A DNA stretch of 64,000 bases from Pseudovirgaria hyperparasitica (lineage: Eukaryota), in assembly GCA_010093815.1 (NCBI GenBank), contig ML996568.1. One strand, written 5' to 3'. Below are positions 9,395-41,136 of the stretch, piece by piece. Each line of letters starts with the position of its first letter. The first letter of the stretch is position 1. Position numbers and translations under genes: made by a program. The notes beneath the pieces were generated by a model. It did not search any database. It saw nothing but the letters and a program-made list of their open reading frames with translations, and was not told the origin of the DNA.

Positions 9395-10665
9395 AAGTAG
9401 AGATATTAGACTAAATTATAGAGCTTTTAGATAAAGAAATAGTAGATATACTAAGTAACTTCTAATAATATAAAGCTAGATAATAAGTTATGGCGGAGCT
9501 ACGTAAGGTATTATAATAAACTATTACTAAACTTTAGAAATATATTATAAATTAGGCTTAAGAGATTTAAACTCTTAAAGAATAGATAGAATATATAAAA
9601 CTTCTTATAAAGAGATAAGAACTTAAGGAGTCTCTTAAAGAACTATACTAAACGATAGTAGATAGATAACTTCCTATACTAATTTAGGCGGAATTAGTTT
9701 ACCTACTATTAGAGTTATAATAATCTACTATATACCTAGCCGCTTCGTTACTAATTTACTCTACTTCTTCTCTAGATATACTAAAATCTAAAGACCTAAC
9801 TATATTTATAGAGAAGAACTAAAAGGAGTAGAAAGACTAGAAGAGAGACTATAAAAAGTACTTCCTTAATAACCCTCTACTCTTTTCTACTAAAGTATAA
9901 TATATTTTATTTAGAGAATGATACCTAGACTTATAATTCTATAATTAATAGAATAGATAGAAGGAAGTATAGCTACTATCTATAATAACCTAGGAATATT
10001 TAGCTATATTTATACTAAATACTCTCGGAACAAATAGAGAATATAAAAGAAAGGCACTATCTAAGTTAAGAAGCGTAGTATAATAACCGAACTAGATATC
10101 TACTTAACTACTATAATACCTCTAAAACCTATAGGATAATATCCCTATACTATAGGAAAATATTTATATATTCTAGTTTTATAAAGTACTACTTCTATTA
10201 ATCCGCGAAAGACTAGAAATAGTATTATTAAGTTTTAACTATCTATATAAATTAGAGAAGAAAGCTAATAAATACTACTATATTCTTAAGGAACGCGGCT
10301 CTCTAGGTAAAACTAACGAACCCTATATAGATTAGAAATAAGGTTAATTAAATATATTTAATTAAGAGTAACCTTACTATAATTAGCGCTAGAAGAGCGT
10401 AAATTAGGGTAGAAACGCGTTAAGAGGATAATAATAATAATAATATTATATAACTAGGTAGAGTAGTACTCTACAGGCCTATGCCTCCTCTAGTCTAAGC
10501 TACTATATAAGAAGAAACCCTATAGGGAAAAACTTCCTTATATCTATAACTATATCTCGTTAAACCTCTATTTCGTCTTAAGTATATAGCTATAGGGTAT
10601 ACCTATTAGCCTATAGCCTATATTACCGTTATTTTACCCTTAGATAGTACGTATAGGTGCGGAGG

Positions 10666-10696
10666 TTATTAGTTAAGGGCTACCCTTAACTAATAA
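10666..10696. promoter_or_regulatory. 31-bp palindrome, copy 1 (3' region of LINE C1)
   Basis: TTATTAGTTAAGGG-cta-CCCTTAACTAATAA; function inferred only. Confidence 0.55.
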
Positions 10697-13600
10697 TTAG
10701 GGTTCTCCCGGGGTTCTTCCGGTATATATCGGGTTACTACCGGCGTATACCGGGTCTCTTCTAGTATATATTTCCGGGTCCACTAGTACTAGAGGAGTAG
10801 TAGATATATAAGCATCTATTAGAAGACGTCCTTAGGGTACTTATTAAGCTATTATATAATATTAGAGGTTCTTATCGTATAGATAAGCTTCTACCTTTAT
10901 ATATAAAGATCGGGGTATATTATAAGATAGTAGCGTATTATACCTCTCCGGCCGCACGCCTTATACTATAGAGATACGTTAGGGACGCCTCTCTTATAGA
11001 GGTAGTATAGAAGTCCTATAGCGCCCGTTCGGGCTTAGAGGAGTATAGATACCTAGGCCTTTATAAGCCCTTTATATATCTATTTACTCGGCTCCTTCTA
11101 TGGTTCTCGGATCTACTCTAGGTACCTATCCTACTAGGAGGCCCACTAGGCCCGGAGTATCTCTTTCTACTTATCTTAGATCTATAACTATATACTTCGT
11201 CCGAGCTCTTAAAGGCTCTATTAGTCTAGAAGGGTATCTAGATTATCCTTAATCTCTTATACTACTTAGTTCGAGTCTATTTCTATCGGGCACTTATACC
11301 GTAGTCGAGTCCGGCCTATATATAAGAGTACTTAGTAGTATACGCTAACTCGCGCGCGTAGCGCGGCGAAGGTATATTCTATATTTTCTATACGTTCCTA
11401 TACTTATTATTTAGTAAAGTATACTACCCTCTATATCTAGTAGAAGTTATATATACTTATAACGTCTATCTCGCGTTATAGTAGTACCATATTAGTAGCT
11501 TTATATACACCTAATATAAGACGGAGTATACGGTTCTATATGGATTCGAGCTTTATTTACCTAGTCTATATAAGGGCCGTATACTAGTACTCGTGTCTAT
11601 ACGTGAAGGCGGGTCGTACTATAGATATATATAGCTAGCGTGCCTTATCCCGGGTAGTTCTCTATATAGAGGCTATAATCCGTTATATAGCGGCTTCTAC
11701 CTAGAGGGCCCTAGAAACGGTGTATGTTACCTATGGTCCCTATTTAAGCTTATTATTAATTATAACGCTAAGTACGCGTATGCTTTATGTCGGCGGTTCG
11801 TTAAAGGCGTCTATTCTAGGGCGTCGCTTGCCTTCCCTAGTAGCCTATTTCCTACGGCGGTTAATGAAGTACATGAGTTAGTACTTTTCGGGGCGAACTT
11901 TACTCTATAGCGCTTTGCCCATTAGACGTATCTCCCGTGGTCTTATTCGAGTCGTCTATATGTTTAGCTAGTATTATTATCGATAGCTAGAAGGTATATA
12001 TCGTCTACGTATCCTACTACCTCTATATATTATATTCCCTAGAGGAGGTCTATAGTAAAGAAGAGGAAGAGAATCGGGGAGATAGTACTTCCTTATAGGA
12101 TGCCGTAAGCCGTCTTCTCGTACTCACTTTAATATCTAGAGATATATATCTAGGTAACTCTTTCGGCGAGGAAGGACTATATAAACCGCGTAATCTACGC
12201 GGGTATACGTCTCTTCCGTAAGTTAAGATGAGTCTCGTGTGGTTTACTTTATCGAATACGCCGGCCATATCGAGGGAGAGTAGCGTTACTATACGTCCCT
12301 ACTTCTATACGGTCTAGACGACTTTAAGGATGTATTAGATAGCGGTAATTAGAGAGCTTCTAGCCTTCGCCTTCTGGTTTACTAGGAGGAGGTTATGTTC
12401 CTATACTACGGCGCTTATCTTCTTCGCGATCATGGCCTCTAGTATCTTCCCGAGATAGGAGAGGAGGGTAATTAGCCTCCATCCTTTCGGGGAGCTAGGG
12501 TTCTTCTCTAGTTTCGGGAGTATAATAGTATAGACGGCCCGGAAGCTTTGGGGGTGGTATCCGTTCTTAATACATGCTTGAAATATATAACTAATGAGCG
12601 GTAGGGTAGCTAGTATAGTGCGTTTAAGGCACCTATTCGGTATCCCATCCGGTCCGGGTACCTTGTTATTCGGGAGTACTTTAACGGCGTCGAGTATATC
12701 CTCCTTAGTAACCTCTTAGGGGATATCGATTACGTCTAGGTATTTAGTATTATTAATATCTAATAGGTCTACTAGCTCTAGGAGGGGGAATATAACTTTA
12801 CGTAAGATCTCCGTCTTCTCTAGGCTTATAGAGTATATCCTCTCTTAGTATATTAGGGGAGGCATTAGTGGCGGCGGTGTCGGCGCGTCTATACCCTTAG
12901 CCTACTTTGCCATGCGCTATAGCCCTACGGCTTACCGTGTATGTTTATCGGTAATTATACGCTATTATTTTCGTCGTTTATTACGGAGGGCCCTATCACG
13001 ATATCGCACTACTTCCTTCTACTCTTCCTAGGCCTCGGTCGTCCGGATATAGTATACACGTATATATAGTCTATGGGCGTCTCTTCTATACTCTTATATT
13101 TAAGGTATACCCCTCGCTTCTAGGGGTCTATACGTTCGGTATAGTACGTGTTTATCTCTTATGGCTTAGTATGCTTGAAGGAGGACTTGCACGGCCTTAT
13201 CTATGGCTGGGCCGTTAGATACGTCGACTATAGAGGGGTCTAGAATTACTAATTCTAGGTCCTCTAGGTATTTATCCTAATTAGTATCCTTCTATAGCTA
13301 TTTCCCATATTATTCGTTAAGAGTGGAGACGTCTATTACGGTTTCCATGCATTCGTGGTCGGAGTCCGTCTATATCCGGCTCGGGCGGTAGTACTATACT
13401 CTATGGCTGATGTGCTCGGTAGCGAGGGTAAGGTCGAGCGTAGACCCGTTCTCGTCCTATTTATATTTCCTCTAGGTAATCTACCCCACGGGTATAAGGA
13501 GATATAGAAAGTCGTAGTACCGTATATATAGTTCCCTTACTCTAAGTTCTTCTCTCGCGATGGCTAGGCCTCCCTACTACCTATGGTAGAGATTAAAGTC

Positions 13601-15473
13601 GCCTAGGAGGATATATTATCCCGGCGTCGTGGTGCCCTCGAGTATATTATCTAGCGTGAGCGATCGCTATTAATTATAGATATTATAGATATAGAGAGGC
13701 CCTATACTTATCTAGAGATATAGTGTTATCTGGAGGTCATTACGTTCGGTATAAGACCATTCTAAGAGCGGGATCGACTTGTGTATATAAAATATAACTC
13801 TCCTGTCCGGGCCCGTGGGGTGGATGGTATAGTATCCTAGGTATGTTGTTAGCTTGTTAGTTTAGTAGTGTTTATATAGTTCCTAGATAGCTATTATTGC
13901 GGCTCCTATCTCTTCTAGGAGCGTCGCTTGGTTTTCTTGTTTATGTTATACGTTCGCCTATATAATAATAAGTATATCTTATACCCTTATTAGGTGCTAG
14001 GGAAAGTTCGAGTCTATATGTTAGTGGCGCTAAGGCGTGATTATCCTCGCGCGGTAGCGGCTTTAAGTATACCCTAGGGTCGGCCTATCTTTCTCTATAT
14101 AGTATGCTATTACGCGTTGTCCTCTCCCCTTTAGGGGGTGGTTACCGGATTTATAAGTAAAGTTAGGGATAGCGGCGAGGGTAGCGAGGGCCTTATAGCT
14201 TAGTATATCCACCTCGCTTCTCTTGTCTTTATCGCGTTAATATATTCTACGACCTACTTATGTTTCGTGCACGTTACTAACTAGGATAGGTGTTTCCCGT
14301 CGTAGTTAGAGTACTTAGCGGTGTCCCTATCTCGCGTCTCGTCGCTCTGCGTCTTATAAGGGCATTCCTTAGTGTTATAGCCCTATTTATACCACCTATA
14401 GGCGGTCTTCTAAGAGTACCTCTACCTAGTATACCCATATCCTTAATAGTTAAAGCATTGCGTTATTACCTATGCCCTATCCTATGGTTCCGCCGTAAGT
14501 AGCTCTCCTTCGGCTAGGAAGCCCTCCTACATTATCCTATAGGCGAGAGCAGGGTCCCTAAGCTCTACTATTATAGTAGAGTACTTTTTCGATTTTATCT
14601 TGATTCTCTAGACGTTCTTCTACCACGCCTTCGCAATCTTAATCCTAGGGTACTTTGGTTTATTAGATTGCTCTATTTACTTAATATCGTCTTCTCCGAT
14701 GACGTGTCCTTAGATAGGGATAGTATATATCTATATTAGGTACGTGGTTACGCGGACGGACGCGCTAGAGAAGATATTATTAATCGCGTTCGGGTCGCGC
14801 GAGATAGTCTACTAGGCCGTATTAGTAGTGGTAGTTAGTACTATACCTCCTAGGGTGAGTTTAGCGGCCACCATATTTAACTATATCCCTTTCTATTCGT
14901 TAATCTTATTTATAATATCCTTTAGGGACGCTTACTAGACTTATACGAGTACTTCTTTATTCTAGATAGTAACTTATATACTATATACCCCGTCCGTGGG
15001 TGCCCTTAGTGTTTTAGCTAACATGGCTGTTCCGCTTATAGGTGCGGCGACCTATGCCCACGTACTAGGGCGTTTTCCCTGGGTAAGGCCCTCCTAGATC
15101 CTCTATAGGCTGGCCTCTATGCGATCTAGTCTAGATTCCGGGTCTAGTTCCGGCGCCTATTTTACTCCTACGGTAAGCTCCCTAATATTCCGGATAAGGT
15201 TCCGGAAGATACTAAGGAGGGCCGTTTCTCCCTTCTCGACTTCCCCCTCTACACGTACTACCTAGTAGTTAATCTTATCCGGGAGGGTCTCCCCGGGCAG
15301 GGTCCCCTCCGTCTCTATTATCTATAGCGTTATACGCCCTTGGTTATTCGTCGTTTATTAGACGGGGGTTTAATCGTCCTAGGATATACCGCTATATAGC
15401 CGTTTCTACCATACTAGTGTTAGGGGTATACCCGGTGGAAGCCGAGGTACGTCGGTGCCTAAGGCCGCTATAA

Positions 15474-15504
15474 TTATTAGTTAAGGGTAGCCCTTAACTA
15501 ATAA
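15474..15504. promoter_or_regulatory. 31-bp palindrome, copy 2 (just upstream of the probable ORF1 start of LINE C1)
   Basis: TTATTAGTTAAGGG-tag-CCCTTAACTAATAA; function inferred only. Confidence 0.55.
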
Positions 15505-16934
15505 AAGGGGGTTAGCGTGTCGGCGTTTATTAGATGTAGTCTATGCTCGTGTTATCGAAGAGTCTTCGAGCGTATATATATAGTATCTCTATACGTTAGT
15601 ATCGTCGCGTATTATACGCTATACGTACGCACGTGTGTCGGAGGTTATTATACTTGGTATACTCTATCATTTGATGTATGTAAATCGCTGTTTTACCCCG
15701 AATTGACTAGTTTAGTCCGTTAGGGTATAAGAAGTTGTCTAAATTCCGCGTTAAGAGGATACTAAAATAATTAAGGCGGTGCTTCTTAATATAGAAAAGG
15801 ATAAGATATAGACTTAAATATAATACCTATTATAAAATATTAGGATTATAGCGTACTTTATTACTATAAGTATAGAGAAATAGAATATATTTCGCCTAAC
15901 TATAAGAATCTAAAAAAAGAATAGGCTAGTATATAAGACCTAACCGTATTCTTAGCTAAATTATATATACTTAGAAGAAGCTATAGCGCCTTCCGGCGAG
16001 TAAAGACCTTATATTACTAAAAGTATTATTATCTATAGTAAATAGTAATAAAACTATATAGGCCCTTATAGATACTAGTATAGAAGATAACTATATTTTA
16101 TTAATTCTTATAAAGGAGTATAGATTATTATATAATCTTAGTAAAGTTAGCCGAACTATTATAGTTAATAGATATAAAGTTAGAACTTTAGGTAAAGCTA
16201 TAATAAATTACGAAGTTTATAACTTAAAGATAATAAAATAGTAGATATCTAATAAATTTATTATAGCTAATATTAGCTAATAGAATATAATTCTAGGGAT
16301 GCCTTAGCTTAGATATCTAAACTCTATCCTTAATTTTTAGAAGAAGATATTAATATTCTAATAATACCGTAGTAAATTATACTAGTAAGTTATAACTATT
16401 AGTAAGAAGGTATAGAACCTTACTATACGGACCCGATTATTACTAATCTATCTTATATTCTTATTAATTATTAATAAAGATAAGGATAATAGTAATAATT
16501 AGGGTAAAGACACACTATCTAATATATATTTATAGTATACGGATATATTTTCGGTAGAAGATACATTACTTCTCCCTAATCATAGGCTATATAAGCTAAA
16601 GATTAAGCTTAAAGAGGGAGTAGACGTCCCTTATAGTCTACTTTATCTACTTTTAAGACTAGAACTTAAAGTTCTTTATAAATATATTAAAGAATACCTT
16701 AGAAGAGGCTAGATACGTTATAGTACGTTATTAGCTAGTATATCTATTCTCTTTATAAAGAAGAAAGATAGAAGTTTACGTCTATACGTTAACTATTAGA
16801 TACTAAATATAGTAACTAAGAAGAATTATTATCTATTACCGCTAGTTAGTAAATCTTTAGACTAATTAATAAAGGTAAAGTACTTTATAAAGCTAGATTT
16901 ATAAGATATATATTACCGGCTTTAAATTCGTTGC

Positions 16935-17280
16935 TGTTATAGCTATAGTAGTAGTATATACCATGTATAATTAATATAGGTAGTTACAAACCGGTCGTTT
17001 ATATAAATATAACCGACCGGATATATATATAGAAAATAGTATACTTTATAACTAATATAACTTAACTTATTAATAATCTTAATAAAGTAGTAGCTAAAAA
17101 CTAGTATCTACTAGTTCGTATACTTCGAACACTAAGTCCTCTTTACTAGGCTATCTTAGTTAATATAGTAATAATAGAATAATCGCTAGTTTAAGTAACC
17201 TCCTCCTTACTATACTACCTATACTAACTACTTTATTATAGGCTAGTAAAGTATCCTTCTTCTAGTATATAGCACGAGTA
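16935..17280 (+). mobile_element. Start of an LTR element inserted in the A1 RT (LTR ~16935-17084, then PBS-like tagtagc = TGGTAGC); probably the 5' end of Gypsy G
   Basis: Homology to A2 stops exactly before TGTTATAG at 16935; candidate LTR end ...cttaata at 17084; sequence runs into the assembly gap. Confidence 0.55.
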
Positions 17281-17520
17281 NNNNNNNNNNNNNNNNNNNN
17301 NNNNNNNNNNNNNNNNNNNNNNNNNNNNNNNNNNNNNNNNNNNNNNNNNNNNNNNNNNNNNNNNNNNNNNNNNNNNNNNNNNNNNNNNNNNNNNNNNNNN
17401 NNNNNNNNNNNNNNNNNNNNNNNNNNNNNNNNNNNNNNNNNNNNNNNNNNNNNNNNNNNNNNNNNNNNNNNNNNNNNNNNNNNNNNNNNNNNNNNNNNNN
17501 NNNNNNNNNNNNNNNNNNNN
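17281..17520. other. Assembly gap (240 N)
   Basis: Run of n. Confidence 1.
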
Positions 17521-24819: not shown

Positions 24820-24886
24820 ACGCCTATTAGCCTATAGTCTATATTACTATTATTTTACCCTTAGGTAGCACGTGTAGATACGGAGG

Positions 24887-24917
24887 TTATTAGTTAAGGG
24901 CTACCCTTAACTAATAA
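24887..24917. promoter_or_regulatory. 31-bp palindrome, copy 3 (3' region of LINE C2)
   Basis: TTATTAGTTAAGGG-cta-CCCTTAACTAATAA; function inferred only. Confidence 0.55.
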
Positions 24918-27838
24918 TCGGGGTTCTCCCGGGGTTCTTCTAGTATATATCGGGTTACTACCGGCGTATACCGGGTCTCTTCCGGTATATATTTCCGGGT
25001 CTACTAGTACTAGAGGAGTAGTAGATATATAAGTATCTATTAGGAGATGTTCTTAGGGTACTTATTAAGCTATTATACGATATCTAAAGTCTTTATAATA
25101 TAGATAAGCTATTACTATTATATATAGAGGTTAGAGTATATAGCTAGATAGTAGCGTATTATACCTCTCCGGCTATATACCTTATACTATAGGGAGGTAT
25201 TAGGAACGCCTCTCTTATAGAGATAGTATAGAAGTTCTATAGCGCCCGTTCGGGCTTAGATAAGTATAGATACTTAGGCTTTCGTTAGCCCTTTATATAT
25301 CTATTTACTTAGTTCCTTCTATAGCCCTTAAATCTACTCTAGGTACCTATTCTATTAGAAGGTCTAGTAGATATAGAGTGTCTCTTTCTACTTATCTTAA
25401 GTCTACGACCGTATATTTTTTACGAGTTCTTAAAGACTCTACTAGTCTAGAAGAGCGTCTAGGTTATCTCGGACTTCTTATACTACTTAGCTAGAGTCAG
25501 CTTCTATTAAGCACCTATACCGTATTTAATTCCGGCCTATATATAGGAGTGCGCGGTAATATATACTAATTTATATATATAGCGCGGCGAAAGTATATTC
25601 TACGTTTTCTATATATTTCTATACTTATTATTTAGTAAAGTATACTACCCTCTATATCTAGTAGAAGTTATATATACTTATAACGTCTATCTCGCGTCGT
25701 AGTAGTACCATATTAGTAGCTTTATATACGCCTAATATAAGACGGAGTATACAGTTCTATATAGATTCGAGCTTTATTTACCTAGTCTATATAAGGGCCG
25801 TATACTAGTACTTATGTCCGTATATAAAGGCGGGTCGTACTATAGATATATATAGCTAGCGTGCCTTATCCTAGGTAGTTCCCTACGTGGAGGCTATAAT
25901 CTATTATATAGCGGCTTCTATCTAGAGGGCCCTAGAGACGGTATATACTACTTATAGTCCCTATTTAAGCTTGCTATCTAGTATAACTCCGAGCGCGCGT
26001 ATACTTTATACTAGTAGTTTATTAAATACGTCGATTCGGGGGCGTCGTTCGCCTTCCCTAATTACCTATTTCTCTTAATAATTAATAAAGTGTATAAGCT
26101 AGTATTTCTCTAGGGCGAACTTTACTCTATAGCGTTTTACCTACTAGAGGTACCTCTCGTAGTCCTATTCTAGTCGTCTATACGTTCGGTTAGTATTATT
26201 ATTAATAGCTAGAAGGTATATATTATTAGCGTATCCGACTACCTCTATATACTTTATTTCTTAAAGAAGGTCTACTATAAAGAAGAGGAATAGAATCGGA
26301 GAGATAGTACTCCCTTATGGGATGCCGTATACCATCTCTTTATATTTACTCTAGTACCTAGGGATATATATCTAAGTTATTCTTCCTATAAGGAATAACT
26401 ATATAAAGCGTATAATCTATTCTAGTATTCGTCTTATCCGGAGGTTATGAATAAGTCTTATATAGTTTACCTTATTAAACGCTCCGGCCATATCGAGGGA
26501 GAGGAGCGATACTACCCGTCCCTATTTCTATGCGGCCTAGACGACTTTAATAATATATTAGATAGCTATTATTAGGGAGCTATCTATCTTTACCTTCTAG
26601 TTCGGAGGGAGGAGATTATATTCCTATACCGCGGTACTTATCTTCTTTACTATTATAGTCTCTAGTATCTTATCTAGATAGAAGAGAAGGGTAATTAGTC
26701 TCTATCCCTTTAGGGAGTTAGGGCTCTTTCCTAGTTTCGGGAGTATAATAGTATAGATAACTCGGAAGCTCTAGAGGTGGTACCCCTACGTGACGTATAC
26801 TTAGAATATATAAGTAATAAGCGGTAGGGTCGCTTTTATAGTACTTTTTAGGCATCGATTTAGAATTCCATCTAGTCCGGGTGCTTTATCATTTAGGAGT
26901 ATCTTAATAATATTAAGTATGTTCTCCTCCGTAACTTCTTCGGAGATATCTACTATATATAGTATGGAAGGCCGCTCCTGTAGCCCTACATGTATGTGTC
27001 CCTAGCTCGATCATATGGCTCATTGTATATTTAAGGAGGGCGTTTTCCTTGGTCATTCTACATGACACGCTTCCACCATCACTAATATTCGACGATTCGA
27101 CCTTTCCTTACGTTCATGGGCCTCTATGGGTATTGATTATTAGGCTTAGCTATTGATGAATTGATTAAGAGTATTATATAGACCCGTCCTATCGTAAAAG
27201 AGAACTAATAAGAAGTCGTGCGTTCAAAGAGAACTTATAATACCTAGGAGAGATACTTGTGAGTTCGTCGCGACTACTATACTAAGGACACAGCCATTTA
27301 TAAAAAGGGACATACGTGGCGATAGCTTATCATAATTTTAGAGGTCGTACCTAGACTACGAACTTATAGGGGGAGATTAGGACTCCGAAACTAGCTTAGG
27401 GGAAGTATATGGCGTGCCTAATAAGGTAGTCTAGACTTACTAGATCGAAGCCACGAGTCCGGAAAACAGGGAGTCCGGAGTCGCTAGGGGCTAGCCTCTT
27501 AAAAGTAGCCGTAAAAAGCATGCGCATGCTAATACGGGTGATAGCGCGACTCGAAAATGTCTTAGGGGAATAGGATATAAAACAGGGCCAGATGAAGCAG
27601 TAAAGAAGAGTTCAAAAACGATAAATATAACCTGTTTAGTGCTGCTATAGCTGTTATTCACAAACACGGCTACACGAGTATACCACTTTAGGAACGCCTC
27701 ACACGAAGATAATAATATAAGTAGGATACCGTGAACCTTATATTGATAAAGACGATAGTGATAGTTCATCTTATAAAGGGATTAATCAATATGGAGAAGG
27801 GATGATGGGTGTTATGGGTAGACGTATTGGGCTAACCT

Positions 27839-27866
27839 TTAGTTAAGGTAATCCCTTGACTAATAA
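27839..27866. promoter_or_regulatory. Degenerate palindrome, copy 4 (in the gag frame of D)
   Basis: ttagttaagg-taat-cccttgactaataa; keeps the unmutated TTGACTAA arm. Confidence 0.45.
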
Positions 27867-30546
27867 CCTTACCCCCAGCGTCTCCACTGGCACACCTGCT
27901 GCTAGTAATGGTGCGATAGGAGCTTAAAATAACGACCTAGTAACTCGTAGAGAGATGCTTAACTTCTTCGTAGCATTTGCGCGATAAGGAAGGATGGTAC
28001 CTCTATCCACCCTAGCCCCCGAGCGCTTTGAAGGAATAAATATTACGGCCTTCCTTCGGAAGTACGAGGACATATATATAAACTACGAAGTTCCGCCTGA
28101 TAAGAAGATAACCTCCCTACCGTTATACTACGAGGACTATCTCCGTCCTGCCATTGAAGGAATGGGTGGGTTTTAGAAACAGTAGTAGACCACGCTACGT
28201 GAAGAATTATTAAAGGAATTCTCTCTATTTGACTCCGCCCTCGAGGAAGGCACCATCTACTTTATCCGAAAATACGTGGAAATGGTTAAAGTAGACCCAT
28301 TCTACTCTCTCCCTATGTACTGCTCCCGGTATTATATTATCACGGAGAAACTTACGGCTAAAGGAAGCCTAAGCTCGTATTCGCGAATAGAGCTCTTCCT
28401 AGAAGGGCTGCCTAATAGTCTTAAGGCTCGGGCTATAGAGAAATGTTAACTCACGATGGAAGCATATAGTTACGACTAGGTAATTATCTATGACTTCGTA
28501 TCACGAAAGGCTAGAGTACTTAAGGAACTAGCTCGTATTAATAAGCACTCAGCCGCACAAGAGCTGGCTATAGCCATATACTATAAATTAAAGATAGGGA
28601 GTAAGAAGACCAGCTTAGAAGAGCAGTCACATGAAGAAAGAAGAACTAATGAATTTAGCCACCCCTCTCTAGTCGAAGTATACGTCGCGCTAGAATCGGA
28701 TAAGTTTAACGAGATAGTAGAGAGATTTAGTAAACTAGACCTCACGTCAATTAAGATGAAGTCCTGCTTTACCTCTGATCCCTTATTCTTATCCCTTAAG
28801 AAGTACGAACCTAAGCTGCTTTCGGCTATTATTAACTAGTAGGCGCGAAGGCTAAATCTTTTAATACACCCCTAAGTACGAGGCATGCCCATGGAACTAA
28901 CGTAAGTTTACCCATAGAATTATATATAGAATAGAGAATACGTCTCTACCCGAGACTCCTAAGGAGGCGTTATGGCCTAGGATAGGCCTCGAAGACCGAT
29001 CGTGTGTATTACGTGCGGAGGAGATTACCTAATATATAGATGTCCGGAGATGGTAGAATATATTAGAGACGGATTACTAAATGTTAACGGGGTGCGAGTG
29101 TTCCGAGGGCGTTTCAGGGCGAACAGAGAAGAAATCCCATTACTACCCTCCTCGGTAGGGCTATAAGCTACCCTATAAGCTATCCAGAACTACGTAGTAA
29201 CGGTTTAAAACGGCCTAAGCTAGTACGGAGGGGGAGTGAAGGTTTCTACGTCTATAGTAAATATTAACGCTTCATGGGGAGTGCCGGTATATAGTATTAG
29301 TATAAAACCTACGAAGGGTCCCTACTAGGCCTTGGCGGACAGCGATTCGGAAGAAGAAGTCACGTCGCCCGAGAGTAAGAAAGATAGATATATAGAATTC
29401 CACGAACGCTTCGACGTGGCTAGTAATAGATATATCCACGAGGAGATAGCCCTGGAAGAGCCCGCTATGCTCGTAATATCTAGAAGGGGGATTACGAAGA
29501 GTATACCTAATTATACTAAGGAAAGAAAGATCGCCCGTCTCCGCGGAATGCGTGAAGGGTAGTATATAAGGATTATCGAGGAATAGGAGGACGGCGAGAA
29601 GAGTAGCGACTAGAGAACGTCTAAATAAGAGCTAACGGCGTCTAAGGATAAGATGGATGAAGGGGATGGCCTAAATCCTAGTTAAAAGGCACGTATCCGA
29701 GGCGTTAAGCTTAATGACTATCTACGCGAGGGATAGCGGCTGAGTATAGAAGCTAGCGAAGCATAGCTAGTGCGCGTTCTAGGGATAACTATGAATATTA
29801 CCATTAGCGAACTATTAAGTCTTAATAGCGACTTACGTCGTGCGGTGTTCGAGAAGGGCGCCCCCGACTTTATAGCTAGAGAGGTCCGCGAGGCTTAAGA
29901 GGAGAGAGCCGAGAAGAAAGGAAGAAACGACCATGCCATGGCTTCTAAGATAAATAAACTTAACGTATTAGCACCCCTCTATGCTACGGGGACGGCCATC
30001 ACGTAACAAGATATTAATTAGCTTAAGGAAGGGATAGTAAGGCTAGTGGCCGAGTGTCTAAGGTACCCCGTGGAAGTTAGTCCTAAAAGGGCGACTAGTA
30101 TAGTACTATTCAATAGTGGCGCGCAGGTAAATAGTATTCGACTAGATGCTACGAGGCGTCTCAGGCTAGCGATATCTTCGCTTCCACCATATATAAAGAA
30201 CTCGAGTTTAGTTAGCGCTACTTAGTATAGCACTCCATTCATGGGAATAGTATAGTAATACCCCATCCGTATAGGTCGGATCGTTACGGCCACTTCGATA
30301 TTCGTATACAGCGAACTTAATCATGACCTTATCCTAGGGGAGCCATATACTAGGTAGGCCTTACTTACGGTGTAGAGGTTAGCCTCTAGGTAAGTACTCT
30401 TAATAGTCCACTCCGCATATGGATAAGAACGTATAACCTTCGAAACTAGTCCGGACGAGTATATTCTGGTCTTAGAGAAGGAGGGTAACTCCGTGGCTAG
30501 AGACTAACTATATAGCGGAGTATGTTGCTAGAAGCCGGAGTTAAGC

Positions 30547-30585
30547 CGGATTATTAGTTAAGGGCTACCCTTAACTAATAATCCG
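30547..30585. promoter_or_regulatory. Palindrome, copy 5, extended to 18-bp arms, between protease and RT of D
   Basis: CGGATTATTAGTTAAGGG-cta-CCCTTAACTAATAATCCG. Confidence 0.55.
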
Positions 30586-33500
30586 CACTAAATGGGGTCC
30601 GGTGAACCCACTAACGAAGGGGATAGGATATATTTTTATACGGATATAGAAATGAGTTATATAGAGTTGCTTTCCGAGAAAATCCGGCCTAAAAATGTTA
30701 CTCGGTTGTCGAGAAAAGATGACTTAGCCGCCCTAGTTACGGCGGTAAGGTACGCTGCCTTCGTATATAAATAAGGCACGATAATAGAACGGCTTATAGT
30801 AGGCTCCACCGGCCTCTAAAGACGGTATTCATCCGGGGTATTAAAGGGATTTAGTATAGCTACCATATATAAAAGAAAGGGAGTTAAAGTACACCCCGTA
30901 GATGACTCCGAAGCCCACCGAAAGGTCCCTAGGAATCTATTAGGGTATCTAGACTAGCGTGAACGAGTAATCGCACGGTAGATACTTCTTCCAGCCGTCT
31001 ACCTAGGCCTTAACGCGTTTAATAGGCTAATAGAGCCTCGAAGGGTAACTATCCCGCTAGGAACACGTCTAACGCCTCTACGTATAAGTTAGCTAAAGAT
31101 TAGAATAGAGCTACGTCCCGCGGAACTTAAGTTACTATATATAATCTTATTATATCGCGAGGAAGTACTAGCATGGGAATTCTTATACCTTAGTAAATTT
31201 AATAAAGAGGTGGCACCTCCGTAGGAGATCCGAACGGTGGAACATAAGGTATAGTAGGCTAAGAACTTTAATATTCCTAGAGCCCTTTATAGGAAGGTAC
31301 TCACGATCCTAAAAGAGCGTCTTAATAGTAGAAGGCTCGAGCCCTATAGTAGTCCTTATCGAAACGCCTATTTTCTCGTGGAAAAGAAGAAGGAAGCTAA
31401 TAAGGAACGAGATTATAGGTTAATTAATTCGGTGATAGAAATCAACCGAGTCACTATTCGTAATGCGGCCACGCCGCCCTCGTGTGAAGAATTCTTAGAG
31501 CACTTTACGGGGATGGCCGTCTTAACGTTTACCGACTTCTTCTTAGGATACGATTAGATTTCATTAGTAGAGCATTGCCGAGACTTAACGGGGTTTATGA
31601 CGCCCCTAGAATTACTACACGGGATAATATTACCTTAAGGGGCCACTAATTTAGTAGCTTAGTTCGTTAGGATCATGTTAACTATTATATAAGAATATAT
31701 CCCGGAGAGGGCTCTACCATTCCTAGATAACTTAGGCATTAAAGGACCTACGATGAAATATAACTCTAAGGAGGCCCTACCTAGAATTTATAGGTATATC
31801 CTAGAATATTTAATTAACGTGGATAAGGTTCTCGCGGATATAGAGCGCGCCGGATACGCCCTAAGTAGTAAGAAGACTCAGTGGTATATTAAAGCCGCTA
31901 ACGTTATAGGATACGTCTACGGCATTAAAGGGAGGCGACCGAGTAGTAAAAAGGTTACTACTATTAGGGACTGGAAACCCTATAAAAACACGACGAATGT
32001 ACGAGCCTTCCTTGGCGTTTATACATATTTCCGGATATGGATCCCCGGGTACGCTATTATCGCATCGCCGCTATTTACACTATTAAAGAATAAATCGGCC
32101 TAGTAGTAGATAGCTAAGGAGTAGACCTCGATGGACGCGCTAAAGATAGCTCTAACTACTACTCCCGCACTAATAATGTTACGGTACGGGACAGGTGCGG
32201 GAGATATAATCCTAGTAGTAGACTCTAGTAACGTTAGGTGGGGGGCTGCGTTAATGTAGGAGAACGAGGATCATAAACGTTAGCCATCGCGGTATAATGG
32301 AGGAATGTGGTTAAAAGCTAAGAGAAACTACGACACCGTGAAACTAGAGTGCCGAGCCCTCCTCCACGCGTTATAGAAGTTCCGGTAATATCTCTATAGC
32401 ACGCACTTCATTATAGAAACAGACGTGAATACTCTAGTCGCTTAAATCAACCGTACCGTAACTAACTTACTAGGGGCGCTCGTTACTAGGTGGCTCGCGT
32501 GGATTTAGCTATAGAACTTTATAGTTAGGCATGTACCTAGGAAGCGTAACATAGTCGCCGACGGCATCTTACGGATGCACGAAGGAGAAGAACCACCAGA
32601 CGTCCCTACCTTTAACCTAGACGAGTTCGTGGATATAGCTCTATGTATAGACGTGCTAGAGACGTCGTTAATCAAGCCCATTAGCGGGAGAGATTACACG
32701 ATAGGGATACTCGACTATGCCGCCATTAAGTCTCCCTTAATAGATGAATATAGCGATAAATGGTAGAGGATTACGAAGTATCTTACTACACTCGAGAGGC
32801 TAACCGACCTAACCGACCGAGCGTATAAGGCCTTTATGACCGACTGCCTAAAGTTCCTCGTGCGTAACCGAATACTCTGGCGGAGAGGAGATGGGTATCG
32901 CTAATATACACGAGTAATTAAGGATCCGAATACTAGGGCGTGTATAATTACTACCACTCACGACGAGATAGATCATAGAGGTAGCGAAGGGACCCTCGGA
33001 AGGATTAAGGATAAGTATTAGTAGATAGGTATGCGTAGAGACGTGTGATAGCACGTGAAAACCTATAACGAATATTAACGACGAAGTAAGCTCCTCGGAG
33101 GTCTTAATAAAGGGCTCTACCACGTTATAACACCTATTCTTTAGTAAAGAATATACTTAGACGTAACGATACTACCACCTTCTATAGGGTATAGTAAAGT
33201 AGTATCCATATAAGAATAGCTAAGCGGATGGACTAAGGCGGAGGCATGTACGGCGGCCACGTCTATAGTCGTCGTAAAGTTCCTCTTTAAGAACGTGATC
33301 TATAGATACGGAATCATTCCTAAAATTACCTATGACGGTGGTAGAGAAAATATGGGTGCCATAGAGGAGCTCCTCCGACTCTATAGAATTTATTAGAAGG
33401 TTACGTCTGCGTATAATCCCCGAGCAAATAGGATTATTAAGAGAAGTTTTATACTACTCGCTAATGCTCTCGCGAAGATAACTAATGGCGGATTTAAGAA

Positions 33501-34539
33501 CTGGCCTAACCACCTCCATGCGGTCGTCTAGGTAGATAGAATAACGACACGTGCTAGCATAGGGTATAGTGCCGCATACCTCGTGCTCGGCCATGAACCA
33601 ATCATGCCTATCGAAGTCGAATTTAAGTCGCTCCGAATGCTCCCTTAGGACGAGGTGCGATTAACGTCCGACTTACTCGCTCTTCGAGCTAGATAACTTA
33701 AGAGAAGATCCGAGGATCTTAAGGAGGTCTATGCCCACGCGATACGAACGCGTAAGGAATCAAGAGAGGCATGGAATGACGACTATCACCTTCGTTAAGA
33801 GTCGTTACTAGTTGATACGATTATCCTCCTATACGACTCGCAGCGACAGAAGGATATAGGGCGAAAGCTAAGATAGCATTAGAGGGGGCTATACAGAATC
33901 TAGTCCGTGTTTAATTATACTTATAAGCTCGCGGAGCTTGATGGAGCCATGCTTAGAGGGACGTTTCCTAGCCATAGGTTAAAGAAATATTTCATGAGAA
34001 ATGCGAGTAACGAGAGTTACGACGAGCCCTCGCGACCACCGATCGGAAGAATTACCGAGGAAAATAAGAGAGTGGCGATAAGGAAAACTATCATAAATAA
34101 CTCACGGAATACCTCGACGACGCCACATGAACCCGGGTAGAAGTGGTGATTCCTACTCCGTAAGGCTTTAATAGAGAGGAATATTTGCGTTTCCCTAGAA
34201 TCGATATCTCCTTCTAGGGGATAGAAGTTTTTTTTAAGGAGGGAAGGGATGCTTGTAAAAGTAGTCTCATGACGATGAACTCCATTATCGAAAGAGGATG
34301 ATAAACCCCATTATCACTATAAAATAATAAAACCCATTATTAAAGTAAGCAATGCTCGAAAGAAGACATAATGGCGTTTACGCGAAATTCCACCCACCAC
34401 ACATTAAAACCGGTCGTGTAATCAAAGCCCACCCATCGAAGGCCTATTTCGTTACTATGGAACGGGCCCCGTTAGGAACTAATAAGGAAGAAAAGAAGGA
34501 GGAGATATAAGAGAAAAAGATACTTATAGGAAGTCTTAT

Positions 34540-34720
34540 GAGGATGAGAATATACCCGGTATCTATTTATTTATAGATTCCGCCATATACCCGGTAGACA
34601 CATTCATTCATAGATTTCCTATGTACCCAGCATATATTTATTCACAGATTTAACACGTATACGGGCCTACGGCCGTTGGCAAGGATCATTTATAAAAATC
34701 ACTATATACCCGGCATTCGA
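34540..34720 (+). repeat. Imperfect ~35-bp tandem repeats upstream of ORF3 in D
   Basis: Three units of the form tatacccggta...ttcattcatagatt starting near 34550, 34585 and 34620, plus tatacccggca near 34705. Confidence 0.65.
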
Positions 34721-34873
34721 GGAGGCATAAAAAGAGAACTTAAGATAGTATATAACTCTTCCCTCTTACACCTCTCCATACCTCCTTAATCGATAAAACC
34801 TCCTCCTCCACTTCCGCCTCGCTCAAACCACCTCTCCTTAGAACGTAACTCGCCGATAGAACTAATAATAATA

Positions 34874-37779
34874 ATAGCCCCGCCGAAGAAGAAAACGCCT
34901 ACCCGTGAAGAGTCATAAGATCGTTAAGTACTAATAAGATAGACGCGGTCCTAGTTAAGAGTCGTGAGTGCTAAAGTAGGGCCATCGACGGCTATCGTGG
35001 TATCGAGGCCATCTACTACTCCGCACGGATAGGCTATAGAAGCTACGGAAATAAATGAGTCCACCATTAACCGAATCATCGCCATCTAGGACCCGCAAGA
35101 GCGATAGGACTATATTCTAGACACGTTTAATAATCTCCTTTATATTACCAGCCTCGTAGAATAGCTCTTAAGTAGTATAGTTAACCTCTTCTAGGAAGTA
35201 GGAGCCGCAATAGGGTATAGTAAGGTAAAGATTAACTCCTCTATTCCGAAAGAAGTCCACGAGATGATTCGTCGTGGAAGAGACACCAACTCCCGCATCC
35301 TAAAAGCCAAAAATGCGATCCTACAAAACTAGCGAAAAGACCTCCCTAATAATAACGGCCAGTCACTCTAATCCGCCCTTGGACAGCTCTAGTAAACATA
35401 GAACTTCATGGAAAAGCTAGTAGCGCTCTCACGAGTGCGAACATGGGCGAGAGCGAGGAACTAGTTAAACGTATCCCTATGGTCCTAAATCGGCCAGGGA
35501 CAGAAGGGAAGGGGAATCAAGGCATATCTTTAGAGCTCTAATATCGATGCCGCTCTAGCTAGCGATAGTAACGAGGACGGCCTATCTCTCTAGTAACTCT
35601 CGAACTACCCTAGCCGATAAAATAAACTAACGTTCCATAATAAGACGGGACTTATTATCCCCGCTAGTTAACAGTCACGGATAAGTAGAATGGTTCATAG
35701 GCCCGTCGAACACTACCTATAAATCAAAGAGATAAGTACATCGCCTCCGCCTTAGACCTTACCGTCGCTAAAACCAGCGTAGATAACGCCCGTAGTGAAG
35801 TCCCCTCCACGAAGCACGCCTCCTAGTTTAGTAGCACGTTATCTCTTCGAAGCTAGTCGTCCGTTCGAAGCAAGTATTCCTCCTACCACCACTAGTAAAC
35901 GTCCCCTACCGGGCCATGCGAGAACGTCTTTAGTATCTATCACGGCCACGCCGATAAAACCCACTTACGGACGTGCCTCATCTGCCGGCCCTTAGTAATT
36001 ACTAGGGGCGCCTACATGATAATCCCCGGTTATTCTTAGTTCGCACCCTAAGACGATGGCATCGGTCGAGGAAGAGGACGAGCCTAAGAAGTATTAATAC
36101 GCGCCTTTAGTGACGAAGACTTTTAAGGCAGCTACATTATCAAAGAAGAATTTCACGAGCATTAAGGGAATGGCCCTACTAGTGCGCTGGAAAGCGTAGA
36201 TAGGTAACATGGCTATTCCGTACAAAGTCTACTACAAGCATTGCTAAGACGTGGCTAGAAAGAATGATATACTCGTTAGCGTGTCCCACTTAAACCTAGT
36301 GGCGAGACTTAAAATGGTATATGAGTTTAGAGATAACGTGGGGGCCCTTAAAGTTCATAAGGACCGCTATACCTGGTTCGCGAAGTACGCGCGGCCACCT
36401 TATCCAATAGAGGCATTAGGTATCTATCGTTACCAGGCCCTAGAGACCCCGAAGTAAGTCATTAATATTAAAACCATCCTTACTAGTATCGCATTTATGA
36501 TTCAGAAGGAGGACGGTAGAATAGATAGATAACTCTTCGACGAGTGGGAACGTACCGGAAGTGTTAATATTAAAGGGCTCTTCGAGCCACTTAAAAAGAC
36601 GACCTCTATACTTAATAAGAGTATCCTGGAACTCGCGAGGGATGAATTTAATATGTACAAGTACCACCAGCGCATGTTTAATAAGAAATCGAACTACGGC
36701 TGGCTACGAACTATATACCACTCCTATATCTAATAGTTTATTAGGTAATGCCTACTTTACTAGCTCACCTATGTCGCTCTTTGGCCCGATCTTAACCACT
36801 ATCTAATCTCGTACCCGTACTATGCGAAGTCCTAGGATAGGGGCGATAAGACGGGTTTTAAGCATCTCGATAACGCCATCAATCGAATCCTCGATCCTAG
36901 CGATAGACACGGGTTTAACATGATCTAGGGGAGCATTAGTCTCGACGACAAACGAAGTGACGACTGCACTATAATCGTTCCCCGCTTCTATAAGTTCTTA
37001 AACGAATGGTAGTCGAAGGGTAAGCTCCGCGAGGGGGTTAATCGAAACGGTATAATCACGGCTATTAACGATAAGATCTATAATGCGGACGACAGGAAAC
37101 GATTTGGTCCCTTCGTCCCAGTCCCCTACTAGTCCCTTAAAGTACGTATCTCTAGCCCACTAATAATACACGGCGCCTAGGGTCCCGTAAAGGGTGGAAG
37201 ACGCACGATGCTTCTATAGTATATCGCGATTAGCCCTAATCACATGATAATGGAAGTGCCTGAAATGGGCACATGGGAACAACTCGCAGTAGCTCACAGG
37301 AATTTGACTCCGGGACCCACGTCTCCGTCGGGATTTTCTAATAAATACGGCGCGATTCCTTTTGCCTTCCTAGCCGCAGTTCAACTCCCGAGTTTTAACG
37401 CCGTTAGTAACGCATTAGTCGGCCGTAAAAGATGGGACAGCTAGGAGGTGAAAGAAGAGGCAGCTACGTGGCTTAACGCAAGTCCTTAATAACTTAAAGC
37501 TAAGGTAGACGCCTGGTTTAAGGAGGGCTCGAGGGTATTTATAGAGACCTTTAAGAAAATGGTAAGGTAGGAAAGGCTAGTCTATAGGGATAGATCGTTC
37601 TGGAAGGAATTTAACGAGGCGCGCGCCGCTAAGCGGCCAATTAATTTTAAGAAATTCAAGCCTAACGCGGGCCTAGATAACGTCGAAGAGAACTTCTATA
37701 GATAGGAGAGGCCTAACGAACTATCCGACGAGGAGGAATCTAACCTCTCTAAGATAAGCGACATGATTCTTTAGGAGCT
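34874..37779 (+). pseudogene. ORF3 of element D: ~970 codons; helical N-terminus, Pro/Ser-rich linker, C-terminal PhyH-like 2OG-Fe(II) dioxygenase-type domain; RIP-inactivated; 3' end runs into gap
   Basis: One frame from ata(ATG)-gcc-ccg-ccg-aag-aag-aaa; stops are TAA/TAG explainable as RIP of CAA/CAG/TGG, plus one TGA. Motifs ISYPYYAK, GFKHLD (36863-36871), MI(Q)GSISLDD, CTIIVPRF, VPVP(C)...VRISSPL.IHGA (His 37169), RRTML(PW). Confidence 0.72.
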
Positions 37780-37849
37780 NNNNNNNNNNNNNNNNNNNNN
37801 NNNNNNNNNNNNNNNNNNNNNNNNNNNNNNNNNNNNNNNNNNNNNNNNN
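37780..37849. other. Assembly gap (70 N)
   Basis: Run of n. Confidence 1.
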
Positions 37850-37850
37850 A

Positions 37851-37881
37851 TTATTAGTTAAGGGCTGCCCTTAACTAATAA
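37851..37881. promoter_or_regulatory. 31-bp palindrome, copy 6 (between ORF3 and the 3' LTR of D)
   Basis: TTATTAGTTAAGGG-ctg-CCCTTAACTAATAA directly after the gap. Confidence 0.55.
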
Positions 37882-40800
37882 TCCGGGCTAAGGTTTACCC
37901 GCGCCGAGAGGTTTACTAGGGGCGCATTTTATTCGTATTAAGGTCTTTCTTTTGGGCGTTCTTCACACGGTTTCTCACACGGTTACTACACTACTAAGGG
38001 CAGCAGTTCTATGGGCCGGGGAGGTATATATGGAAGGCCGCTCCTACAGCCCCACATGTATGTGTCCCTGGCTCGATTATATGGCTCATTATATATTTAA
38101 GGAGGGCGTTTTCCTTGGTCATTCTGCATGACACGCTTCCACCATCACTAATATTCGACGATTCGACCTTTCCTTACGTTCATGGGCCTCTATAGGTATT
38201 GATTATTAGGCTTAGCTATTGATAAATTGATTAAGAGTATTATATAGACCCGTCCTATCGTAAAAGAGAACTAATGAGAAGTCGTACGTTCAAAGAGAAC
38301 TCATAATACCTAGGAGAGATACTTGTGAGTTCGTCGCGACTACTATACTAAGGATATAGCCATTTATAAAAAGGGACATACGTGGCGATGGCTCATTACA
38401 ATAGATATTTAGCGCCGTAAACGTCTAATAGGTCTACTAGTTCCGGGAGAGGGAACATGGCCTCCTATAGGGCCTTAGTTTTCTTAAGGCTCGTAGAGTA
38501 TATTCTCCTCTAATGTATTAGGGGAGGCATAAGTAGCGGGGGTATCGGAGTATCTACGCCCTTAGCCTATTTCGCCATACGCCATAGCCCTATTATATAT
38601 TATATCTATTAACTAGTAATTATATACTACTATTTACGCCTTTCGTTACGGAGGACTTTATCGCGTTATCGTATCGCTTCCTTCTATTCTTTCTACGACT
38701 CGGGTATTCTTATATAGTATACGCGTATATATAGCCTTCGGGCGTCTTATCTACTTTCCCGTACTTAAGGAATCCCCTTTACTTCTAGGGGCCGGTATAT
38801 TCGGTATAGTACGTGTTTATTTCTCGTATTCTAGTATGTTTATAGGAGTGTCTATACGGCCTAGTCTATGGCTAGGTTATTAGATATATCGACTATAGAG
38901 GGATCTAGAATCGCCGATTCCAGGTCCTTCAGGTACTTTTCCTAGTCGGTGTCCTTCTATATCTATCGTCCCCGTTATTTATTCGGGGTATATACGTTTA
39001 TTATAGTTTCTATATATTCGTAGTCGGAATCCGTCTATACCTAGCCTAGGCGGTAGTATTAGATCCAGTAACTAATATACTCCATAGCGAAGGTAAGGTT
39101 AAGCGTAGACCCGTCTTCGTCCTATTTATGTTTTTTCTATATAACTTATTCTATAGGTGTAAGTAGGTATAGGAAGTCGTGGTAGCGGGTGCGTAGTTCC
39201 CTTACTCTAAGTTCTTCCCTAACCACGGCTAGGCCTCCCTACCATTAGTGGTAGAGGTTAAAGTCTCCTAGGAGGATGTATTACCCTAGTTCCGTGGTAC
39301 CCTTAAGCATCTCGTCTAGTATAAGTACACGTTATTAGTTATATATGTTATATATATATAGAGGGCCTATATCTATTTATAGGTATAGTATTATCCTAAG
39401 GTTATCGCGCTCGGTATACGACTATAATAAGAGTAGTATTAACCTATAAATATAGAAGAGGACTCGTCTTTCTAGTCCTAGAGGGTATATAGTATAGTAT
39501 CCGGGGTGTGTGGTTGGTTTACTTATCTAGTAGTATTTATAGGGTTCCTAGATAGCGAGTATTATGGCCCCGGTCTCTTCGAGGAGCGTTGCCTAGTTCT
39601 CTCTTTTATATTATATGTTTACCTATATAATTTAGAGTATATTCTAGTCCCTTATTAGATACTAGGGAGTATATATACCTATATACTTATTCCTTAGAGG
39701 CGCGACTATCCTCACGCGGCAGCGGCTTTAACTATACCTTTTAGTCGTCCTATCGTCTTCGGAATAGTCTACTATCCTACCTAACTATCTTCCGGAGGGG
39801 AGGTTAGGGGTATTATAAAGGAAGGGCTCGTGGTAGGTATTATATTCTATAACTATCTCGTGCCTCTTACTTTTATCATACGAATGTATTCTATAACCTA
39901 TTTATATTTTATACACGTTAACGACTATAACGGGTATTTCCCGTCGTAGTTTAAATACTATACTATATCTCTATTTCTTAGTCCGTCTCCTCGCGGTTTA
40001 TAAGGGCACTTCTAGATAGTATGGTCCCTACGGTACTATCCGCACTTAGTCTTCTATAAGTACCTTTATATAGTATATCTATACCCTTAATAGTTAAAGT
40101 ACTATGTTATTACCTATACTCTATCCTATGGCTCGGCTATAAGAAGCTCTCCTTCTATTAGGAATCCCTCCTATATAATATATTATATAAGGGCGGGGTC
40201 TCGGAGCTCTATAATTATAGTAGAGTGTTTTTTCGCCGTCGTCTTAATCGCCTATAGGTTCTTCTACCACGCTTTTACGATCTTAATCCCTAGGTATTTT
40301 CGCGTGTTAGATTATTCTATATACGTAATATCCTCCGCTCCGATAGCCTATCCCCGCACGGGTACTACGTATACTATAATCGGGTATATAGCTACCCTAA
40401 TAGACGCGCTAGGGAAGATACTACCTATTGCGTTCGGATCTCGCGAGATGTTTTACTACGTAGTATTCGTTATAGTAGTAAGTACTACCCTACCTAGCGT
40501 AACTTTAGTAGCCACGACGCTTAACTACATTCCTTTCTATTCATTAATCTTATTTATAATTTCCTTTAGGGATACCTATTAGACCTACGCTAGCGTGTCC
40601 TTATCCTAGATTACAACACGTATACTATATACTCTATCTATAGTCCTAGTAGTCCTTAGTACGGTAGCTCCGGGTATTACTATAATCTAAGCCTACGTAT
40701 TAGGGCGCTTACCTTAGAATAGCTCTTCCTAGATTCTCCGTAGGCTAGCTTCTATTCGGTTGAGTCTACTACTAGATTTCTCTTATAGCGACTTCCTTTC

Positions 40801-41105
40801 TTCCTCTATAATTCCTCTTAGATTCCGGATAAGGTCCTAGAATATATAAAGAAGGGTCTTCTTTCCCTCCTCGGCGTCCCTCTCTACACGTATTACCTAG
40901 TATTTAATTTTATCTAGGAGGGTCTCCCCTCTCGGGGTCCCCTTAGTCTAGGTTATCTATAGCGCTTTGCACCCTTGGTTAGTTCCTATATTTTAGATAG
41001 GTGTCTAGCTATCTATATTAATGTCGCTATATAGCCGTTTCTACTATACTAGTGGGGGTATATCCGGCGTATACTAGGGTATTACGATGCCTAAGGCCGC
41101 CATGG

Positions 41106-41136
41106 TTATTAGTTAAGGGCAGCCCTTAACTAATAA
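41106..41136. promoter_or_regulatory. 31-bp palindrome, copy 7 (2 nt upstream of the probable ORF1 ATG of LINE C2)
   Basis: TTATTAGTTAAGGG-cag-CCCTTAACTAATAA; minus strand continues cc-ATG-GCG-GCC. Confidence 0.55.

Follow-up and report, generated by a model that had tools for sequence, protein, structure and literature searches.

Beyond nested insertions, retroelements of different classes are believed to have little in common. A 64,000-nucleotide (nt) stretch of the genome of Pseudovirgaria hyperparasitica (GenBank assembly GCA_010093815.1, contig ML996568.1; hereafter, the window) raises the question how the same 31-base palindrome came to reside both in a family of long interspersed nuclear elements (LINEs) and in an unrelated Gypsy family of long terminal repeat (LTR) elements, here denoted D, and what it might do there. 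The palindrome is a real, constrained cis-element that occurs across retroelement classes and, so far, in a single species, with a putative function. Tentatively, with confidence a little short of even, we favor the view that it is a captured RNA hairpin kept by selection at translation boundaries. If functional, it would be a modest example, open to testing, of cis-signals exchanged between classes and would point to a common RNA-binding or DNA-binding factor; if neutral, it documents the capture of a hairpin and the upkeep of its symmetry. The occurrence in one fungal species so far limits the reach of either conclusion.

A palindrome at reading frame boundaries

The window consists of fungal DNA altered by repeat-induced point mutation (RIP). 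Exact matches to the palindrome pattern, with no mismatches, start at positions 10666, 15474, 24887, 30551, 37851 and 41106, compared with zero copies expected from 100 dinucleotide shuffles of the window. A seventh, degenerate copy spans 27836-27866, with the core starting at 27839, and retains TTGACTAA. All these copies had been reported, at the same coordinates, in a preliminary description made from the sequence alone. The anatomy of the window, derived from self-comparison and protein mapping, is as follows (ORF, open reading frame; RT, reverse transcriptase; TSD, target site duplication).

10428..15736, minus strand: LINE1, a non-LTR element with APE and RT domains, an (ATT)n tail and a TSD of about 15 bp, located inside a Gypsy element of family A, RIP-mutated
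10666..10696, minus strand: palindrome, LINE1 3' site, exact match; ORF2 ends at its TAG, 10692-10690 (minus strand)
15474..15504, minus strand: palindrome, LINE1 5' site, exact; the RIP-hit ORF1 start codon runs from 15471, 2 nt beyond
24820..26962, minus strand: LINE2, 3' part
24887..24917, minus strand: palindrome, LINE2 3' site, exact; ORF2 stop assigned by homology with LINE1
26963..38400, plus strand: Gypsy D, inserted in LINE2, with 372-bp LTRs (26963-27334 and 38029-38400) and a 4-bp TSD, inactivated by RIP
about 27802-34200, plus strand: gag-pro-pol of D
27836..27866, plus strand: degenerate palindrome at the D gag start, with 10-bp arms and an AAT-type centre, in the only open frame; fixed in 64 D copies
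30505..30507, plus strand: candidate end of the D Gag-protease, TAA in 28/28 copies (RIP-ambiguous), 55 codons past the protease LG motif
30551..30581, plus strand: palindrome at the D protease/RT junction, exact; pairing reaches 30547-30585; present in 20/20 copies fetched by offset from the gag-start site
34874..37857, plus strand: ORF3 of D, about 900-1000 amino acids, with a Cys/His motif and a predicted PhyH-like 2OG-Fe(II) dioxygenase with the HxD..H..R motif
37851..37881, plus strand: palindrome holding the D ORF3 stop (TAG, 37855-37857)
38401..41370, minus strand: LINE2, 5' part
41106..41136, minus strand: palindrome, LINE2 5' site, exact; ORF1 ATG at 41103-41101

A gap of Ns (37780-37849) lies directly upstream of the ORF3 stop, and this frame was therefore read in another copy of D. 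The LINE1 clade is presumably Tad1-like.

The palindrome is perfect, with two 15-base arms around a single-base centre (GGGC-W-GCCC). Its proposed pre-RIP form was borne out by four exact, unmutated natural copies elsewhere in the genome, with either A or T in the centre. The three-base ctg/cag loop of the preliminary description, in contrast, has to be revised to a single base, the CTA and TAG loops being RIP products. The loops of the two LINEs in the window indeed have opposite orientations, but this does not hold for the family, in which 11 of 23 5' sites have T in the centre and 12 have A, and A/A and T/T combinations occur. Within the window, no match lies outside the LINEs and D, in agreement with the earlier failure to see the motif in elements A, F, G and H; D carries three copies, as claimed, but these are internal, outside the LTRs, the nearest one about 500 nt inside the element. 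Genome-wide, there are 482 exact sites and 64 copies of the degenerate D site, and 642 sites match a 25-nt core with at most three mismatches (one for the reversed control); LINE and Gypsy elements contain about 550-640 copies. The palindrome has five fixed contexts, two in the LINE and three in D, plus two solo sites.

All five contexts are at or near ORF boundaries, a placement overlooked when the motif was described as lying near both ends of each LINE. In a little-mutated LINE copy with APE and RT domains (C52), only 2 nt separate the 5' site from the ATG of ORF1, and the 266-nt leader contains no other ATG; ribosome shunting at this site was rejected because no ATG lies upstream. C52 lacks about 270 nt of ORF2. 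In another, unmutated copy, the ORF2 frame passes the C-terminal zinc finger and ends with ENSDY, the stop being a TAG that the 3' site carries in its 5' arm, in agreement with the length of related proteins (about 1110 amino acids); this site is located about 240 nt upstream of the tail. Two unmutated LINE copies (L038 and L042) share an identical deletion of about 270 nt in ORF2 and the palindrome variant A10G, and thus represent a defective LINE lineage that was copied recently.

When the D frames are translated with X at stops, the first two D sites fall in the only open frame of the palindrome, inside a single gag-pro-pol frame, and the third site provides the stop codon of ORF3. The context of this third site matches that of the LINE 3' site, with which it has the five preceding bases and the stop frame in common. 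The possibility that the D Gag-protease ends at the TAG of the arm was rejected, given that a single frame comprises the protease, RT and the open reading of the arm. A role as a splice branch point was rejected as well, on account of inconsistent acceptors across the sites.

Fixation, constraint and folding

The middle D site is present in all 20 copies of D fetched by offset, no empty site was detected among the 16-51 loci per context in the five contexts, and neither direct repeats nor a TSD were found in the flanks of any site class. These observations bear on the possibility that the palindrome is the terminus or a remnant of a miniature inverted-repeat transposable element (MITE) or another small DNA element with TSDs. 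MITEs are short, have inverted arms and occur in hundreds of copies, as the palindrome does; furthermore, several sites have GA|TC at the palindrome edges, and there is one solo copy in host DNA. Unlike MITEs, however, the palindrome has no TSD, no internal part and no dispersed insertions, and owes its copy number to its host elements. Three flank screens for unusual dinucleotides, in which flanks starting with GT were left out, yielded 12 of 964 flanks, 11 of which are LINE subfamilies. Thus, the conclusion that the palindrome is not an obvious MITE holds, and the MITE origin is largely refuted and very improbable.

A site-specific recombination or cassette-exchange site flanking coding modules, another of the earlier suggestions, is also largely refuted and appears hardly credible at all. 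The perfect dyad would suit such a site, and pairs of sites bracket ORF1+ORF2, gag-pro and pol+ORF3. However, among the 69 genome-wide matches to the screening pattern, none joins the 5' and 3' flanks of the LINE (67 carry the usual flank of a subfamily, one is a LINE variant and one is the solo site C47), and no recombinant, that is, no deletion or inversion junction, was found among about 100 sampled sites. Pfam scans of the LINE and D proteins detected no recombinase domain, and a 1-bp centre is unfit for the overlaps of tyrosine or serine recombinases.

The two solo sites differ in nature. At C47 (L041:6990-7060), an unmutated RT sequence of the Gypsy family A is cut at the first base outside the 31-mer, which is followed by a scrap of the LINE 5' untranslated region (UTR). 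This dead fragment documents one case of natural capture by a third family. The scrap carries a 9-nt fold-back repeat, and the junction is likely a product of templated repair. The other site, C19, is a single-copy, unmutated variant in host DNA, with an ATT centre that resembles the degenerate D site and a longer stem. It lies between a gene encoding a chromodomain-Myb (Reb1-like) protein, about 770 nt past its stop codon, and a second gene that we take to be ZIM17-like. The chromo-Myb gene (L120:3173-5830) is spliced and transcribed and combines a weak chromodomain match with Reb1-like Myb repeats; its product has no match in the ESM Atlas. The C19 site is identical in a second sample, and an RNA-like contig runs through it. 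Pairwise comparison of C19 with the LINE, as a possible relic of the latter, gave p values of 0.005-0.015, uncorrected, and no profile match. One RNA-like contig (L120:191-6421) covers two genes including the chromo-Myb gene, which does not imply a single transcript; the second gene on this contig is presumably frequenin-like.

Constraint was assessed on LINE copies picked by flank-wide similarity, counting only transversions and indels present in at least two copies. At both LINE sites, none of the 30 arm columns is variable, compared to 122/488 and 55/408 columns elsewhere, the 5' figure being somewhat inflated by alignment edges. Other invariant 30-nt windows are absent from the 5' region and make up 5.8% of those in the 3' region. 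Across LINE subfamilies, the arms do not vary, in contrast to the centre, which flips freely, and no compensated stem change was found among the 24-26 LINE copies per site. Together, fixation and the invariant arms uphold the proposal of a built-in, constrained element common to LINE and Gypsy.

When folded as RNA, five of the seven sites are far more stable than shuffled sequences (z from -4.4 to -6.5), and site-specific flanks lengthen the stem. The internal changes that RIP does not account for, A10G and A11G in the 5' arm, preserve pairing as G·U on the displayed strand, and so does A3G in the host copy; the least mutated near-full-length LINE copy carries A10G. Rfam covariance models gave no match to a LINE copy and the host site at E<=1. 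RIP has affected the CpA/TpG positions of the motif in 50-100% of copies, that is, as heavily as along the LINE (median, 89%), which is at odds with the suggestion of local anti-silencing.

Hairpin signal, passenger or protein-binding site

The reading that we favor would run as follows. A sharply bounded hairpin module would have arisen in, or entered early, the LINE family of this fungus. Copies would have been placed at either end of the LINE coding region, and the ancestor of D would later have received the module at three places, all before the two families multiplied. Capture would most likely proceed via template switching by reverse transcriptase or templated repair, and at least two captures into D are implied because D carries both centre types. 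In the RNA of the elements, the module would fold into a 14-18-bp stem at translation boundaries. This stem would lie just ahead of a start codon at LINE ORF1, D gag and D RT, whereas at LINE ORF2 and D ORF3 the last stop codon is part of its 5' arm. Its most likely effects would be to weaken initiation and to label the RNA so that a protein can bind. The boundary placement, the extension of the stem by unrelated flanks, the wobble-compatible changes and the free loop suggest that it acts at the RNA level; transfer from the LINE to D is suggested by the greater subfamily diversity of the LINE and the shared stop context. The invariant arms, the folding of five of the seven sites, the capture at C47, the Gag-protease ends of D relatives described below and, weakly, the hint of LINE transcription also speak for this reading. 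Among the functions offered in the preliminary description, an RNA hairpin signal is thus the best candidate, although we hold it at somewhat under even odds.

Several findings weigh against this reading. The palindrome sequence is absent from the best 80 of 411 loci with LINE relatives (23-45% protein identity), which contain scattered, unrelated palindromes, many in AT-rich DNA, and the two best matches with long flanks have no long palindrome at all. Between ORF1 and ORF2 of the LINE, as between pol and ORF3 of D, there is no palindrome. In a whole-element window test with the centre included, the motif is not singled out (23rd and 70th percentile); the degenerate D site folds no better than shuffled sequences (z -1.3); and a few non-wobble changes occur at the outer arm positions 1, 2, 3, 5 and 30 of 3' sites. 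The homology between the D and LINE flanks is not significant (p 0.04-0.14, uncorrected, in 56 comparisons, with no profile match), so that the LINE-to-D direction is tentative. The hint of transcription, given below, comes from word matches, and an RNA run could contain the LINE as DNA. Finally, a neutral insert would also survive in UTRs, linkers and tails.

Indeed, the palindrome might be a neutral, self-correcting hitchhiker that is captured at RT pauses or breaks, survives where harmless and remains symmetric by fold-back correction. This alternative, which we regard as rather unlikely, accommodates the sharp edges and the blunt capture at C47, the absence from the LINE relatives and the lack of protection from RIP; the centre flips and a symmetric C-G to A-T swap adjoining the centre resemble template-switch products. 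However, self-correction should let the arms drift together, whereas four sites have the same arms and compensated changes were not seen in the LINE copies compared at each site. A stem of roughly -20 kcal/mol located 2 nt before an AUG should be costly for translation of the LINE, and the three separate acquisitions by D are all at boundaries.

The conservation of sequence as well as pairing, and the equivalence of a central A or T on double-stranded DNA, would fit a dyad recognized by a dimeric DNA-binding protein, bZIP or Myb in type, with the site serving as an internal promoter, a roadblock or an insulator. We presume, as did the preliminary description, that the arm resembles AP-1/Yap sites; it also resembles the Yarrowia telomere repeat GGGTTAGTCA, to which the Myb protein Tay1 binds (passages of PMC4839565), and the sole single-copy site in host DNA follows the chromodomain and Reb1-like Myb gene at a short distance downstream. 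Nevertheless, host DNA shows no enrichment of the half-site (of 80 matches, about 35 belong to palindromes, leaving ~45 outside compared to 57 for the control) and contains one full copy; A10G breaks TTAGTCA in one arm of three little-mutated, young copies; telomeres here are TTAGGG; the RNA contig runs through the host site; and a DNA site would have no reason to track start and stop codons. We therefore consider this alternative unlikely.

A more radical idea makes the 31-mer a mobile micro-element in its own right. Lacking TSDs, it would insert at the ORF junctions of whatever retroelement RNA it meets, and a shared factor would read, bypass or remove it at the RNA level. The exact-edge, blunt capture in a third family and the longer-stem solo copy in a transcribed host region hint in this direction, as does the length of 3n+1 at the place where the register of the D RT differs from the -1 arrangement inferred for its relatives, which is a one-in-three coincidence. 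We deem this improbable; if true, LTR and non-LTR elements would use one signal.

The RNA hairpin reading calls for comparison with known recoding signals. Hairpins or pseudoknots located after -1 frameshift or readthrough sites stimulate recoding. Among the pol relatives of D, 17 of 19 are 1196-1322 amino acids long, with matches beginning after the protease. A recognizable protease end is present in 68 of 152 gag-side proteins, 54 of which stop 49-72 residues past the LG motif, and 46 of these 54 have a slippery-type dipeptide among the last eight residues (7 and 10 in control windows). Judging from these protein sequences, the -1 frameshift junction in the clade of D appears to lie between protease and RT, not before the protease. 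In the relatives of D numbered P0161-P0310, Gag-protease ends about 58 amino acids past the LG motif. D has a matching Gly-Asn, and its TAA, 55 codons past the LG motif and 43 nt before the palindrome, is present in all 28 copies; it is ambiguous because a known sense codon inside the arm also reads TAA in 28/28 copies as a result of RIP. The middle D site, at the junction where the relatives end Gag-protease with slippery-type dipeptides, goes beyond an insert in a linker and may in this respect be compared to a recoding stimulator. However, stimulators are found 5-10 nt past the slippery site, not 43 nt past a candidate stop, the D RT is in the frame of the protease, and the other four sites have nothing to recode. 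Apart from that of D itself, none of the proteins retrieved contains the peptide encoded by the palindrome.

In their working, the closest systems are the GalEa elements' Conserved Hairpin Site (CHS) and the stringent-type LINE stem-loops, neither of which matches in position. As described in passages of PMC5445492, the CHS is a hairpin in fungal retroelements of one Copia clade that replaces the primer-binding site directly after the 5' LTR and consists of 9-bp arms 12-41 nt apart, with CHSeq1 being CTGATCAGT or CTAATTAGT; an 'extended CHS' of 33-62 bp is common to different families of one species, and the function is inferred from conservation. The palindrome is likewise a hairpin common to different families of fungal retroelements with a function inferred from conservation, but is a perfect 15-1-15 dyad that occurs several times per element at ORF boundaries and spans the LTR/non-LTR divide. 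In position, it differs from the CHS of those passages, with the nearest D site about 500 nt inside the Gypsy element and further sites in the LINE; its sequence is neither CTGATCAGT nor CTAATTAGT, the forms given in those passages, and its centre is 1 nt. The 3' stem-loops present in the stringent-type LINEs UnaL2, ZfL2 and SART1, also reported for Tad1, lie at the extreme 3' end and have 8-10-bp stems and 5-7-nt loops (passages of PMC5135761). These structures, thought to be bound by an element protein, are also conserved and near the LINE 3' end, and 3' ends are shared between elements; unlike them, as they appear in those passages, the palindrome lies about 240 nt farther upstream and includes the stop codon of ORF2; it has a counterpart at the start codon and is present in Gypsy, too.

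Beyond this genome, searches of IMG/VR and JGI metagenomes for 12-bp arms with free spacing gave no matches, and the motif was not found in the literature searched. A relaxed pattern with 9-bp arms matched 15 IMG/VR contigs with the same inner core (L206-L220) but other centres, three with an ATT/AAT centre and three sharing longer arms; these matches are probably unrelated. The search for DNA of D relatives gave no true match in viral contigs, nothing useful among the 80 LINE loci and one 3-kb pol fragment in genome contigs. Four sequencing runs hold the LINE, all from one organism, and none is listed as RNA. Splicing in two runs from a single sample marks them as RNA-like; these runs include 94-96% of the sampled words of the LINE, a weak hint of its transcription.

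ORF3 of Gypsy D and other sequences in the window

The D ORF3 protein had been named as a candidate reader of the palindrome, which the present results do not support: for a homologue, the matches listed for the AlphaFold model are all 2OG-Fe(II)/PhyH-like oxygenases. The protein represents a family of about 900 amino acids (P0123-P0141), with homologues in many fungi and named matches in Coccidioides, Xylographa and Botrytis, that has conserved Cys/His and HxD..H..R motifs; Pfam PhyH was matched by one of the three homologues scanned. A search of PDB sequences with the ORF3 profile gave nothing significant. Judging from the model, the homologue would have a PhyH-like dioxygenase fold, with no evident DNA reader, and its helical N-terminal part has no assignment; a role of ORF3 in nucleic acid modification or anti-silencing is a guess. 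No account of ORF3 was found in the literature searched. D presumably belongs near Ylt1. In passages of PMC3248453, Ylt1-like fungal Gypsy elements are mentioned, with no mention of a dioxygenase there.

Directly after pol of D, a purine tract followed by TGT (34230-34256) looks like an older polypurine tract, as if ORF3 had been added behind it. Elsewhere in the genome, telomere repeats directly abut sequence from D ORF3 (C9, L024:1-240) and RIP-mutated repeat DNA (C11, L026:1-240), which suggests chromosome healing inside transposons. An origin of the palindrome from telomere repeats was rejected, given the TTAGGG telomeres (3 of 12 contig starts). Other features of the window include an ORF for a membrane-anchored protein of 372 amino acids at 6768-7886, without a Pfam match and, we assume, resembling family-31 glycosyltransferases, and a HET-domain exon at 5497-5874.

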